A DNA stretch of 64,000 nt from Schmidtea polychroa (taxonomy: Eukaryota), in NCBI GenBank assembly GCA_044892525.1, contig CM097886.1, forward strand, positions 173,650,312 to 173,714,311. Direction: 5' to 3'. The notes under the pieces were generated by a model. It was not told the DNA's origin. It saw only the letters and a program-made list of their open reading frames with translations, and did not search any database. A program made the translations under genes and the position numbers. The number at the start of each line of letters is the position of its first letter. The stretch's first letter is position 1. Shown here piece after piece: positions 11,501 through 24,073 of the stretch.

Positions 11501-11526
11501 AGATAGACCTTAACTCTTTCAACTTT

Positions 11527-11884
11527 ATCACACGTAGACACCGAAATTATTTAGCAAAGCGTAAAATACTCTAAAGTGAGTAATTACTATTAAATAATCA
11601 GTATTTTCTTTTATATTAAGTATTTTTTTGACTATTTTCAAAAGATTCGAATAATACTATCTATAAGTTTTGGGTTCTATTTAAAAAAGAGATTAATGCA
11701 AGATATAGTAAATATTTTACTATGAATATTAATATCCAATATTTCCAATTATAAAATATTATTCATTGTTTTTTGTCGTGGTTCTTAAAAAATTATAGAA
11801 ATATTTTACCTTTAAATAGTTTATCACATATAGAAACCGACATTATTTAGCAAAGCGTTAAATACTCCGAAGTGAGTAATATCA
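11527..11884. repeat. AT-rich module M (copies about 11527-11884, 14680-15035, 15185-15363, 20589-20799, 20881-21090)
   Basis: Recurrent text AAAAAGAGATTAATGCAAGATATAG...TTTTGTCGTGGTTCTT...GAAATTATTTAGCAAAGCGT.AAATACTCCGAAGTGAGTAAT. Confidence 0.9.
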
Positions 11885-11888
11885 TATT

Positions 11889-12748
11889 GTTCCTCCGACA
11901 TAATGCCCCTGTTGGGCTATCAGTTTGTTCCTCTTGGAGTTCATCCATGATTTCCTCGCCTATGCCTTCCTCAGGTTTCCCTGATTCCCGCAAAGGCTCC
12001 ACCTATTTGATGAACGTTTCCTTCTTTAGCTGTCCACTAATGGATTCGGCTGTTCGACCCTGACCGTGGACCCTTGATAGTTCCTTCGGATCCAGACCAT
12101 TCACCACTACTTCTCTCACTAGAATCTGAATTTCCTCTTCCTGCCATCTCGATTTCTTTACGACCCTTTCACCCAGCTCTTTTTCTATTAGAACATCCGT
12201 CTTATCCCCGTGAGCACTCTTCTGGTGCACGACTCTGCCAATTTTTGTTTTGAAAACCTTCTCACAAAAATGGCATTTATACATCTCGACCTCGCCCGTA
12301 AAATCCCGACCGCACCATTCACTGATAAATCGTTATTTATAGTGTTGTTTGTCATGGTGTTTTTAGGCGACGACGGTTTTGTGGACCGAAGTGCCTGTAG
12401 ATAGCTTCCCAGAAGCGCTTGCTGAGGTTGGACATTACCCAGCTTAACCTTCTTATCTGTCCTGACCGCCCGGGATAGGAGTTGCCTCCTTTTGGCTCTA
12501 TAGGTTTCCCTATAGTTACCATGAGCTTCCAGCTGTTCGAAAAGAATTACGTTTTGTTGCCATTCTTAGGAGAATGGGAAACGAGAGTAACCACGAGAAG
12601 GTAGTAAATCTTTTCTTTCCGCTCGCGCAGGAGATATCTCCTACCAGGGACGCTAACCTGCAGCACCTAGGCCATCCCTTACAGGGCGGACTGATCAAGG
12701 GCTTTGGGACCAGATTACCATAACTCAAATAGAAGAGAGTCATAGTTA
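11889..12748 (-). mobile_element. R2 non-LTR retrotransposon 5' fragment (5' UTR, C2H2 zinc finger, Myb domain), copy 1
   Basis: YKCHFCEKVFKTKIGRVVHQKSAH (C2H2) followed by RWQEEEIQIL...RTAESISGQLKK (Myb-like), the R2 N-terminal architecture; near-identical to 21092-21905. Confidence 0.88.
12539..12748 (-). ncRNA. HDV-like self-cleaving ribozyme of the R2 5' UTR (P1 5' strand missing), with 28S target remnant
   Basis: Minus strand: P2 GAAAAGAUUUAC/GUAAUUCUUUUC (11 of 12 pairs), P3-L3 ACC-UUCUCGU-GGU, P1 3' strand UACUCUC, GU, P4 CCAUUCU-CCUA-AGAAUGG, then CAAC; upstream TAACTATGACTCTCTT (12733-12748) equals the 28S sequence just 5' of the R2 site. J4/2 is longer than canonical. Confidence 0.72.
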
Positions 12749-14091
12749 TCAAAAACACAATTAGCCGCATACGCTACCAGACGCATACGCATCAAAAGTT
12801 TAACAAACGAACAAACTTATAAATCAAATAAAAGAAAATTCTCGCACGGGTGTGGGTGTGCTACTTTCTGAAACTTTGAAGGAATTTAGTCTCAAAAGTT
12901 TGATATATGGAAAAAGTAGTTCTTGTTAAAATTGGTATTGAATAAAAGTACAGGGAATTTTCAAAGAGAAAGTGGTTTAGAATTATGAAAAAAGTTTTAG
13001 TGGTTTTAATGTCTTAGTTATTAGTTATTATTATTTAAAACAAACTAAAAGTTAAACAAAGTTTCGATTCTTAGCCCAAAAATAATAATTATACATCATC
13101 TATAATTACTAACCATTCAAAGGCTGGCTGCTTGAATCTATTAATATTGTTACATTTATCGAAACGCAAATCTTGAAATATCTCATAACAAAAAATGAAC
13201 TTACCAATTTCCTATTTAAATTCGAATTGCTCATAATAATAATTACTATAAAATTATGGTTTCTTGGTAGCAGCATAAATTAAATGTTAATCAATAATTA
13301 TTCTTATTAGGGTTTCTAATGTCGTTAACGGTAGACTTAAGCTTATACTCTTTTATTTAAATCGACTCGTTAAGGACCAGGGTGTGCTGATAGAATTTTG
13401 GTAGTTCTTATTTTTAGCCATTTTTAAAAAAAATACTTTCCGTTTTTTCATTAACAATTTTTCCAGACAAATAAAAAATGCAAATATTAAAATAATTAAA
13501 AATGGGTTGAAAACTGTAATAACAAAGTGAGATCAATTTTTTGGAAGGTATCGGAAAGTACATAAAAATGTTAATAAAACTGAATAAAACTGCAAATAAA
13601 AATTTTAATAAAAATGTAAGTAAAGATATGAATAGCACAGAACATATCAAAAATATAAATAAAAATCTATATAAAAATCTAAATTAAAATGTAAATTAAA
13701 ATGTGAATAGCACAGAACATATCAAAAATGTAAATAAAAAACGACCTGCTGTTAGTCTTGGTTCTTGTGTTCCATCTAAAGTTATAATAAAAAAAATAAG
13801 AATTTTATTGCTAGTCGCAATAGGTAGAATCTGTTTTCACGCTTTTATTTCCTGTAGTACTTGACCTAAATAAAATTAGTTTACTGGTGTAATTGGCTAT
13901 TTAGTCGGCGAGTCTTGATATAGTGGTTACACTTGGGATCCACACTATACTGAGGGTTAAGTGAAACTGAATGACCATTAGTTAGACAACCCTAGTTTTA
14001 TCCGATACGTGATGGAAGAGGAGCATATTCACCAGACCTATTATATGTAGTTCTTGTTAAAATTGGTATTGAATAAAATTACACGGAGTTT

Positions 14092-18494: not shown

Positions 18495-21400
18495 CAATAG
18501 GACTTAGTGTTATGTGCGGTCGACATTGCATGAAAAGATATTACCCCTCGCTTTGACGCAGCCAATAAATGTCTTACCATCAAGAAGCCTCGTCCCATCC
18601 TTTATCCAGTTATGAATAAAAGGAACTTCATTCGATCCGTTCAAGCCATAACCTTCATTACTCAAGTACAGCCAATGCTTCATCGCTTCATAGTAGTCGT
18701 TTTTGGTCTTCATGTCTTAACTTTTATCGGTTTCCGGCACTTTTTCAGTCTTTTTAAGATCGTGGGGGTGCTGCAGAACAACAATCTGATCTCCCGAATC
18801 TACCAAGCTTTCCAGTCGTTCTACGATCCCGTATTGGATTTCTGCTCTAATCGATGGTATCCCTGGACCGCCGTCCCCACACTTACTGTTGATGAACTCC
18901 GCCGTAGTGTCATTTGGCAGCTTCAACCATTCCCGTACAAACCTTCTTGTCCTCTTATCCAGTTCTCGCAATTCCCCTAACCTTGACTCCCCTAATATCG
19001 CGCGATGCATGATACTAGGGATCAAGAAACTACGAAGTATCTCCAGGCGCTGTTGCGGCTAAAGGGTGCTTTGGTAATTTCAAGCAACTTCTCAACATAG
19101 GAAGTACCAATATTCGCTTTAACCTTCCCATGTGAGTTAAAATACACACCAAGGTATTTATAAGTTGAATCGGGGTCGGAGCTCATATGAGGCACGTTCC
19201 CATCATTGGTAGTCAGTACATCTGACGTAACAAACCATTATGGCCATCCCTCTGTGCCGTTATTGATTTGGGTCCAGGCCGTTCCTTTTGAGCTCTGTTA
19301 GGGTTACAGTCAGTAATAGTTGCAACCCTTCTTTACTCTCAGCACATAAGACGATATCGTCCGCATAAGCCAGAATAGGTACTTTTCTACCTCCACGTCG
19401 GTACTCCATACCAGTTTTCTCCACTTCACCAATTGCCTGCTCAACAATTTTATTAAATAGTATTGGTGAGAGTGTTTCACTCCACGTTTCATCATTGCGG
19501 TTACTGTCCCGATCGTCGTACACGTGTTAGTGTAGCAATTCCTGATATAGTTTACAAGAACCTTCGGATATCTCTGAATCTTTGCACCTCTAATTATCGA
19601 CTCATGGTTCACAGAGTCAAATGCTTTCCTCATGTCTATAAACGCCAAAGATATAAGGCGTTTTTGGCTCCTCGCATCGTATAACAAAGCCTCTAGGAGG
19701 CAAATTTTTTCCAGCGTTCCGTCACATTTCTTGAAACCCTTCTGAGCATTTGAAGCTGGGGCCCACTTCGCGACCCGACTCGCCAAAATCTTGTGAAAAC
19801 CACGTGTCAACACAGAGCTAATGGTGATCGGTTTAAAATCTCCCCCTTCCCTGGGATCCTTAATTTTAGGAATTAGAGACGTGCGACTATTCTTGAGATA
19901 ATCCGGGATGTGACCTGATTTCAGCATGATATTGAACAACTTGCATATCATTCGCGCCGGAATTTTCGTTACTTGAGCAACACTTAGGCCGTCCGGTCCT
20001 TTGCCGTATCCAGCTCCATCTTTTTGAAGCTATAGGTAACACTCCCCATCTCTATCGGAGCAATAATTTCCGTGATTTCCGCTCCTGCCACTACTGTACG
20101 GTCATCTTTTTCACTCGGTGTCTCAAACACCTTCCAATATACATCCATACCTTCGATTATTTGAACTTGAGAGTCACACTCTCCATTTTCCATCCAATAC
20201 CCGAATGCGATCTTATATAGATTCTGCAGCTCAGCATATTGCATTTTCCGCAACTCCTTTTTTGTCGCTCTCTTAACAACTTCGAAATCCTTTCCACCTT
20301 TTTTCTTTTTGTTCGCCTTGTCAGTTTTTCTGCGAATTCGTCCAGTAAAACCACCCGCCCATTTTGATCCGAATCGATAGCCTTATCCAACAGCTCTTCA
20401 TACCAGTTTTTCCCAGGAACCTTTCCTTGACACTCTAGGGATCTCAGATATTGTTCTATATCCGGTTTCGATGTTTCGTCTCTAATCCAGAACATTCCGT
20501 GATCTTGTTCCTCCGACATAATGCCCCCTGTTGGGCTATCAGTTATTTCCTCTTGGAGTTCATCCATGGTTTCCTCGCCTATACCTTCTGGTATTTAAAA
20601 AAGAGATTAATGCAAGATATAGTATATATTTTACTATTAATAGTAATAAACAATATTTCCAATTATAAAATATTATTTATTTTTTGTCGTGGTTCTTTAA
20701 AACTTATAGAAATATTTTATCTGTAAATAGTTTATCACATATAGAAACCGAAATTATTTAGCAAAGCGTTAAATACTCCGAAGTGAGTAATATCAGATAG
20801 TTCCTCCGACATAATGCCCCTGTTGGGCTATCAGTTTGTTCCTCTTGGAGTTCATCCATGGTTTCCTCGCCTATGCCTTCTGGTATTTAAAAAAGAGATT
20901 AATGCAAGATATAGTAAATATTTTACTATGAATAGTAATATCCAATATTTCCAATTATAAAATATTATTCATTTTTTGTCGTGGTTCTTTAAAAATTATA
21001 GAAATATTTTACCTGTAAATAGTTTATCACATATAGAAACCGAAATTATTTAGCAAAGCGTTAAATATTCCGAAGTGAGTAATATCAGATAGTTCCTCCG
21101 ACATAATGCCCCTTTTGGGCTATCAGTTTGTTCATCCATGGTTTCCTCGCCTATGCCTTCCTCAGGTTTTTCTGATTCCCGCAATGACTCCACCAATTTG
21201 ATGAACGTTTCCTTCTTTAGCTGTCCACTAATGGATTCGGCTTTGATAGTACCTTCGGATCCAGACCATTCACCACTACTTCTCTCACTAGAATCTGAAT
21301 TTCCTCTTCCTGCCATCTCGATTTCTTTACGACCCTTTCACCCAGCTCTTTTTCTATTAGAGCATCCGTCTTATCCCTGTGAGCACTCTTCTGGTGCATG

Positions 21401-21905
21401 CCTATGCCAATTTTTGTTTTGAAAAATTGCATTTATACATCTCGACCTCGCCCGTAAAATCCCGACCGCACCATTCACTGATAAATCGTTATTTATAGCG
21501 TTGTTTGTCATGGTATTTTTGGCGACGACGGTTTTGTGGACCGAAGTGCCTGTAGATAGCTTCCCAGAAGCGCTTGCTGAGGTTGGACATTCCCCAGCTT
21601 AACCTTCTTATCGATCTGTCCTGACCGCCCGGGATAGGAGTTGCCTCCTTTTGGCTCTATAGGTTTCCCTACAGTTACCCTGAGCTTCCAGCTGTTCAAA
21701 AAGAATTATGTTTTGTTGCCATTCTTAGAAGAATGGGGAACGAGAGTAACCACGAGAAGGTAGTAAATCTTTTCTTTCCGCTCGAGCAGGAGATATCTCC
21801 TACCAGGGACGCTAGCCTGCAACACCTCGGTCATCCCTTACAGGACGGACTGATCAAGGGCTTTGGGATCAGATTACCATAACTCAAATAGAAGAGTCAT
21901 AGTTA
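18495..21905 (-). mobile_element. R2 non-LTR retrotransposon, 3'-truncated and frameshifted, copy 2 (5' UTR, ZF/Myb, reverse transcriptase, thumb/linker; no RLE endonuclease seen)
   Basis: LIPK..DP....DFKPITISSVLTRGFHKILA.R, AQKGF, FIDMRKAFDSVNH, LSPILFN, LAYADD (19356-19367), YKYLGV, GGPGIPSI, and the R2-typical DG..L....FI..VKARGN; interrupted at 20589-21090 by module M. Confidence 0.92.
21698..21905 (-). ncRNA. Second copy of the R2 HDV-like ribozyme with 28S remnant
   Basis: Same P2/P3/L3/P1-3'/P4 arrangement (P4 loop UCUA instead of CCUA); 28S remnant TAACTATGACTCTT at 21892-21905 (2-nt deletion relative to copy 1). Confidence 0.68.
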
Positions 21906-22769: not shown

Positions 22770-24073
22770 ATGGTTATTATCACGGCAATCGACGAGTAGT
22801 CAATTAGCACTTAAAAAATCGGATCCTAATATGGGGATAATAACCTCTGCCATATAAAACTTCCACTCAAATAATTGGTCGGACAAAAATGGTAAAGAGA
22901 AAGCAATTGTTTTCGAACCCAACGTCTCGACAACACTGCTGTTTGCGGCCTTCAAATAAATATCGACAGTGTTGAGGTTTGGAAGGTACTATTTAAGTAA
23001 GATCGACAAGCTGGTACCAGTGTCGACAAGGAATTTTAGTTTGTTGGAAGGAGACGACAATATATTAAAAGCGTTTGATTCTGCTTCTATTTTAAAATAA
23101 ATCTAATTATAAGTTTTTTTGATTGTTTGCTTTTGCATTTTTTTTGCATTGTGTAATTGGAGCAGCCTTCGAGTTTTTTAAGGCTTTATCTCCAAACCTG
23201 TCATGGTATATACACTTGTCAAGTATCTGACAGGATGGTGCCTTGTCTCGCCAATTGCAACCTAGATGGCAGAACCGTGCCTTGTTACGAAACTTAAAAT
23301 GGAAACGGCACAGGTTCCTGGTTGCAGGAGAAGGTGAACATTGACGTTTATTGTCTATCGTCATTTGTCCGCCTGGTGGACATACTATTCTCAAGCTGAT
23401 GCGTTTAGTGATGCGTTTATGTAATAGCACAAAGTAAGGCTTCTTAGGTCGAAGGTTTCAAAGAAGAAGAAGAAGATAAAATTTCTGTGTTGCTACTTAA
23501 CTGCACAGAGCAAGTTGGTTATTAATTTTGTCGGCCATCTTTAGTAGCTCTACCACATCTGCGGTTGAAGAAAGCGCTAAAATTTATTGTGCGTGTGGCG
23601 GTAAAGCAGACATAGTTTTTGATCCGTAGCAGCCTCAGGATGTATTTGAGTTAGTTCTGCCATAGCATGTTGCAAAAACTGTAATGGTTTTCTGCTACCC
23701 AAAGTATTTAGTGAAGACGGCAGCTGTAGGCTCTTTAAAAATATCGAGGATTGCCGTACGCAATTCTTCATAAGGATTTTTGACGATAGTAAGTGAAGTA
23801 CGAAGGATCACGGACGAAAATTTACTTAATATCGTCCGGGGAATCAACGGCAAAATGCGACAGTATTTGTCTCGTGAACTGGTTACCTCGATTCCATCGA
23901 GTGCTAGTTCGGTAGAAATCAGCCAAGTAAGTGACATAAATACATTGATCGCTGATTGTTGGACTTACGTTTATGTTTTGTCTGTTTGTGATTGCTGCTT
24001 GAGTCATTCTCCGAATCGGAAGAACCGCCAGAAAGTGGCAACAAACATTGAATGAGGCTCTATTCTCTGTCAC
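22770..24073 (-). mobile_element. gag: Ty3/Gypsy LTR retrotransposon gag plus aspartic protease pseudogene fragment
   Basis: gag: ..DGI..SRDKY..IL..IP..IL..FS.VI......NPYEELRTAIL, GSRKPLQFL, LCRFHFKFRNKARFCHLGCNW; protease: KFLVDTGTSLSIL (23016-23033), LKAANSSVVETLG, FYMAEVIIPILGSDFL..N*LLVD; no RT or integrase follows. Confidence 0.88.

Follow-up and report, generated by a model that had tools for sequence, protein, structure and literature searches.

The feature under study, on the minus strand of the window (the whole 64-kb stretch of DNA analysed), is very probably a dead, duplicated 5' fragment of an R2 element that targets the 28S rRNA gene, and the ribozyme of this element is predicted to be completed by host 28S bases -25 to -19, counted from the R2 nick, and to cut at -25. 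It covers the initial ~800 nt of a ~3.86-kb element (12748-11884) and is dead as it stands; both the type of element and the arrangement are already described. The parts named in an earlier sequence-only reading were all located in the window, all on the minus strand (Table 1).

Table 1. Features of the window copy and of the neighbouring second copy (window positions; 28S positions relative to the R2 nick).
Position	Strand	Feature	Support
12749..12840	-	Flank from an unrelated dispersed repeat, neither R2 nor rDNA	
12732..12748	-	28S-derived leader, -20 to -4; closing two bases on the predicted 5' strand of P1, then start of J1/2	17/17 to host 28S
12717..12746	-	10-bp hairpin of 28S-derived bases with the earliest element bases	Shuffles, RNAalifold
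12616..12716	-	Remaining J1/2 (total 131 nt), with two extra predicted hairpins	
12581..12615	-	P2 5' strand, P3-L3-P3, P1 3' strand (12589-12583), J1/4	
12551..12580	-	P4 hairpin and J4/2; candidate catalytic C at 12556	
12539..12550	-	P2 3' strand	
12003..12355	-	Disrupted start of the ORF, R2-D type, with a single N-terminal CCHH zinc finger and a Myb domain	
11506..11883		AT-rich local repeat at which the window copy breaks off (element nt ~799)	
18545..21897	-	Second, longer copy with identical 5' junction; element nt 1-2791, broken RT	

The 28S word at 12748-12733 was the sole 16-mer match within the window to the 3,382 nt of type A 28S used as reference. The sequence-only reading had counted 16 identical nucleotides and had quoted the R2 site with A at -4. 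Both host 28S types have C there (L031, L036, L143, L146), and because of this the match extends to 17/17, although its opening TA also belongs to the flanking repeat, so that the joint between R2 and flank is a 2-nt microhomology. The interval given for the feature, 12539..12840, holds as R2 and 28S sequence up to 12748, whereas the last 92 nt are another repeat. These 92 nt are shared with the second copy and stand in place of 28S -25 to -21; homologues of the repeat that are free of R2 (L180 and L181) were 79-84% identical over ~280 nt. The 28S piece had been taken for a remnant of the target, but it is likelier the 5' leader of a cleaved RNA. The open reading frame carries a frameshift behind the ATG and then terminates at a stop. 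Its CCHH finger and Myb domain, a trait of R2 lineage D, are readable in the translation at 12003-12332, and the Pfam matches to zf-C2H2 (E 0.001) and Myb (E 0.004) lie below the curated cut-offs.

The HDV-like fold proposed for the window, with P2, P3, L3 and P4, was borne out by comparison of copies. On the minus strand, P2 pairs 12615-12604 with 12550-12539 (11 bp with one U-U), P3 pairs 12602-12600 with 12592-12590, L3 is 12599-12593, the P1 3' strand (P1') is 12589-12583 and P4 is 12577-12560, and P2, P3, the 7-nt L3 and P4 thus occur in HDV order. By analogy, L3 would resemble that of CPEB3 and P1.1 would be a single pair. RNAalifold on seven copies found P2, P3, P4 and the 5' helix unprompted. 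Over 10 copies, pairing was seen in 96% of cells for P2, 100% for P3 and 96% for P4, and the full structure was 84.7% paired, versus 37-45% in slid controls. P4 contained two compensated pairs among these 10 copies. The copies are kin to one another, and double-sided pair changes were no more numerous than in shuffles (361/500). Rfam returned no match for the window at the gathering score or at E<=10, and none for L004 or L005. C12556 was unchanged in 10/10 aligned copies while the base next to it varied; C12559 was invariant as well, and the alternative C12551 reads U in L007 and L018. C12556, with a presumably HDV-like spacing, is the preferred candidate for the catalytic base in J4/2. None of the retrieved copies has a ribozyme that is intact throughout: L3 has a deletion in L004, -25 is changed in L005 and the 5' strand of P2 is missing in L015.

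The missing part of the fold is the 5' strand of P1, and here the proposal that GGGAGUA of 28S is its perfect partner was upheld. P1' occurs in two natural forms, which differ in the wobble position as it moves between the first two pairs, and both find a 7/7 partner in host 28S starting at -25 (bases -25 to -19) and at no other spot in -60 to -7. We therefore predict that the ribozyme of this lineage cleaves the rRNA co-transcript at -25. Duplex energies were -7.0 and -8.3 kcal/mol for the natural variants versus +0.2 in the window. The upstream 28S is still attached in two natural copies, L004 and L005, and in L004 bases -25 to -19 are naturally contiguous with the element. A P1 of 6-7 bp, as in HDV-like ribozymes, forms in silico for the family when these bases are present. 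In the window it does not: 28S is kept only from -20, five of the seven host bases are gone and only 3/7 pairs remain, so the window ribozyme should be inactive, as the sequence-only reading had predicted. It is highly improbable that the core instead uses an internal P1 partner before P2 and cuts within the 5' UTR, independently of 28S and possibly still working here. The best internal partner (12626-12620) makes 5/7 pairs in the window and, by eye, 6/7 in L004 and L013, but two of its pairs are mismatched in the window, this stretch is unconserved and is missing from L015 and L020, and complete 5' UTRs with 28S leaders get copied, which an internal cut would preclude.

The family to which the copy belongs targets 28S. 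Its full-length form (L004/L061, 3.86 kb) has 28S to -75 upstream and poly(A) followed by canonical 28S downstream, and is 93% alike to the window copy over the first 732 nt. Young 5'-truncated members (L062, L127, L128) occupy the canonical site within type B rDNA that is itself intact; the genome contains two rDNA types with 28S about 90% alike, which fits a planarian (PMC10991399). In L062 an 868-aa frame is open from RT through a CCHC zinc knuckle to a restriction-like endonuclease, the single-ORF layout of R2-D, whereas the window copies are broken; its knuckle and endonuclease motifs were read by eye, and its named relatives include R2 proteins at 32-35%. For the 3' ends, the best 30 of 59 matches were taken and 22 reach the terminus, counted as loci and not as independent events. 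Fifteen of the 22 adjoin 28S +1, some in intact arrays, in agreement with the earlier assignment to an rDNA-targeting R2 lineage; the others adjoin an rDNA spacer site (2), the 5' end of another R2 (1) or other DNA (4). The copy number is low, with 28 genome matches to the 5' part. A search for a full-length R2 with this 5' UTR in rDNA arrays, suggested with the sequence-only reading, gave none among these 28 matches, and contig depth, which is no measure of copy number, gave no sign that a conspicuously large array of this 5' UTR had been left unassembled. Of two contig sets inspected for expression, X9, which may be RNA, had low-depth pieces over the element and X8 had none. In trees, L004 and L132, a copy at the spacer site, lay close to the window copies; support was weak (RT tree, 89/87).

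The 3' ends also bear on the idea that the lineage has lost or relaxed its target specificity, like R2NS-1_SMed, the 28S-like leader being part of its own 5' UTR. A non-specific planarian family of R2-D is reported (PMC5035012), and 7/22 intact 3' ends among the best 30 of 59 matches have no 28S next to them, two of which (L098 and L110) end in short A-tails in non-rDNA. However, the six youngest 3' ends in this set (99-100% alike) all adjoin 28S +1 (6/6), so that young off-site copies, the mark of a non-specific R2, are lacking. Furthermore, the leader differs in length in each event, the copy number is low, and P1 cannot form without 28S -25 to -21. This idea, largely refuted by the young on-target copies, is very unlikely, and the lineage is not retargeted. 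Escape of the host target through the change at -4 was also considered and rejected: the change at this position is tolerated by R2Bm (PMC10499050), and such sites do receive young copies. At -32, an earlier type A allele is preserved in several of the older R2 junctions.

The window copy arose by duplication. The second copy lies 9 kb away (21897-18545), lacks ~1.07 kb at its 3' end, and has the same 92 nt upstream and the same AT-rich insert at nt ~799; a third copy lies 190 kb off, within a 3.5-kb duplication at 99.5% identity. The three copies cluster on the 5' tree (97/92). Since the 5' junction, the 92-nt flank and the AT-rich insert are shared, the flagged locus is a secondary duplicate and not an insertion, contrary to the view that it had itself inserted ectopically, and the copy at 21897-18545 is the likely source. 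No rRNA-gene match was found near the window copy in about 380 kb searched, and the third copy has a 167-nt piece of 28S at a distance of 4.3 kb. For the flank repeat, a search of about 380 kb surrounding the window did not find the right half of its empty site; one match to it was seen 1.2 kb further out, in L165.

How the founding copy came to sit outside rDNA was approached through the 5' ends of the family. Eleven termini, representing nine independent events, were examined; an 8-nt match 60 nt from the junction in L013 was scored as no leader, and a weak 8-nt match in L007 was included. Long 28S is kept in two of the nine (-75 and -80) and none in one, while the other six keep 28S only from -23, -20, -19, -18, -15 or -12. 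None of the nine breaks off between -24 and -74. A rough binomial calculation, which assumes uniform breakpoints over 900 nt, gave 2e-7 for 6/11. Upstream of the six short leaders lie non-rDNA in four cases, rDNA spacer in one and the poly(A) of another copy in one, and all six copies (6/6) are without 3' ends, unlike the usual TPRT pattern. This last case is L073:8038-8148, where the 5' end, whose 28S begins at -15, directly follows the poly(A) of the other copy; a template jump or a tandem insertion would produce such a joint.

Because the 5' ends cluster just inside -25, off-target or non-homologous joining is the likelier origin, so the proposed ectopic insertion gains weight for the founding event; the window locus itself has lost the 3' end and the right flank that could show it. 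An element inside rDNA would likely be co-transcribed by Pol I, and ribozyme cleavage at -25 would release an RNA that begins with about 22 nt of 28S. The cDNA of such a cleaved RNA, 5 nt short of the end, may then have been joined off-target to a non-rDNA repeat through the 2-nt microhomology; within the preferred account, we consider this origin of the founding copy somewhat favoured. The founding copy would later have lost its 3' end and gained the AT-rich insert, and its front 0.9 kb with the 92-nt flank would have been duplicated to 12840-11884 and again 190 kb off, in an order that we infer. In the empty-site homologues of the window flank, a nick-like word lies 14 nt beyond the junction, with one mismatch to RASIN and a poor, register-dependent RUM (by eye).

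An ordinary insertion in a 28S gene or fragment, later orphaned by deletions that broke at -20 and within the element, is possible but less probable. Many dispersed copies have 28S reaching far past -25, in rDNA broken by other inserts (L004, L005, L064, L074, L129), neither the 3' end nor the right half of the flank repeat survives, the third copy has the 167-nt 28S piece nearby, and similar stranded R2 remnants are known from birds (PMC5035012). On the other hand, 6/9 of the 5' ends fall within 12 nt of each other, close to the predicted cut but not reaching it, with the binomial value given above, and the surroundings of the window copy are free of rRNA-gene matches over the span searched.

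The leader hairpin noted earlier, in which 28S-derived bases pair with the first element bases, was supported by two kinds of shuffle. When the first 40 nt of the element were base-shuffled, 5/5000 trials reached the 10 bp of the helix (12746-12737 with 12726-12717, minus strand), and dinucleotide shuffles gave z -3.3 with equal folding in 0/200. The element arm is nearly an inverted copy of 28S -18 to -9; the hairpin may therefore have started as a snap-back junction, of the kind reported in PMC11331408, and then been propagated. A literature search, which left most subscription journals outside its coverage, found no earlier report of a hairpin between 28S leader and element; the text of PMC3774820 seen here is without mention of one, and its figures might show it.

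R2 ribozymes completed by 28S, cleavage at -25 and R2 copies outside 28S are already published. HDV-like ribozymes of R2 that use 28S as the P1 5' strand were described by Eickbush, Burke and Eickbush (2013, PMC3774820), and the one predicted here shares their architecture and the P1 partner in upstream 28S, with a J1/2 of 131 nt inside their 23-700 nt range. The predicted cut at -25 is the site reported there for sea anemone B, whereas a planarian R2 was predicted to cut at -28. The present case would thus be a second example of -25 cleavage, backed by natural wobble variants in the pairing. Several R2 lineages per planarian genome, as here with L079 and L080, are known from R2-1_SM, R2-2_SMed and R2NS-1_SMed (Kojima, Seto and Fujiwara 2016, PMC5035012), where remnants are likewise flanked by fragmented 28S or non-rRNA sequence. 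Unlike R2NS-1_SMed, the lineage here stays 28S-specific. R2Bm, too, is a site-specific R2-D with occasional copies off 28S, insertions of this kind being rare (Xiong et al. 1988, as cited by Wilkinson et al. 2023, PMC10499050); the R2Bm off-target site retains RUM and RASIN, whereas the match at the window site is weak. The flagged feature is predicted to be a natural example of an R2 ribozyme reliant on host 28S and inactivated once away from it, and the 5' region is a candidate compact module for R2-based gene insertion.

A result of more interest than the flagged feature is an R2 target look-alike fixed in the rDNA spacer. In the type A spacer, about 640 nt beyond the end of 28S, L143:1992-2026 matches 28S -35 to -1 at 27/35 positions in register; 30 shuffles of the spacer gave a best match of only 18-20. 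At L143:1990-2062 the look-alike is joined by an inverted second half. Its 17-mer occurs 698 times in the genome versus 839 28S targets, 143 of which are type B, or about once per type A unit (698 vs about 696), and it is missing from the one type B unit examined. Against the RUM and RASIN motifs of R2Bm (PMC10499050), an element of another species, the look-alike scored 6/7 for RUM (28S itself 5/7) and 4/4 for RASIN.

Four old R2 copies are joined at the look-alike: L015 and L016 via the 5' end (one event), L132 via the 3' end and L141 via both ends. Both 3' junctions are 8-10 nt off register on the present-day spacer allele, and a search for insertions in exact register of the present look-alike gave 0 matches. 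Spacer deletions with breaks at or near the predicted nick were seen in L185, L194 and L201/203/205 among 30 of the 698 loci viewed. The look-alike also folds as an RNA hairpin (z -2.2), and it may be an old scar retained for processing or termination. That the look-alike and its inverted copy, fixed in the major (type A) unit, form a built-in second R2 site or decoy is an unlikely idea. If the site is cut or used, the host array would offer a place where R2 insertion leaves the 28S gene unharmed, or alternatively a fragile site, sensitive to R2, with the potential to drive turnover of rDNA. No earlier report of a spacer mimic of the R2 target was found in the same literature search, to which the same limit on subscription journals applies.

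Further observations concern other elements in and around the rDNA. Two more R2 lineages with open frames of ~1010 aa were found (L079:5039-8086 and L080:1396-9022), both with 3' ends at this same 28S site but lacking poly(A); the 5' region of L080 is 2.7 kb long, the L080 protein is 44% identical, and a scan of the L080 lineage for the ribozyme core found nothing. Type A 28S genes have further interruptions at about -88, +115 and +542 relative to the R2 nick (L064, L075, L076, L129-L131), and a type B gene near +54 (L035); these interruptions are possibly NeSL-like LIN elements, which are described in planarian 28S (PMC4640811). An R2 5' fragment with the ribozyme core is amplified as a 2.2-kb tandem unit in L007-L012 (G000:C1:13.53-13.62 Mb). 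The flank-repeat homologue L181 adjoins LTR-type RT frames. Within the window, a degenerate retropepsin-like coding stretch was noted by eye at 22800-23100 on the minus strand, and 24487-64000 is a tandem array of a 2,806-bp unit with >99.9% identity that extends past the window.
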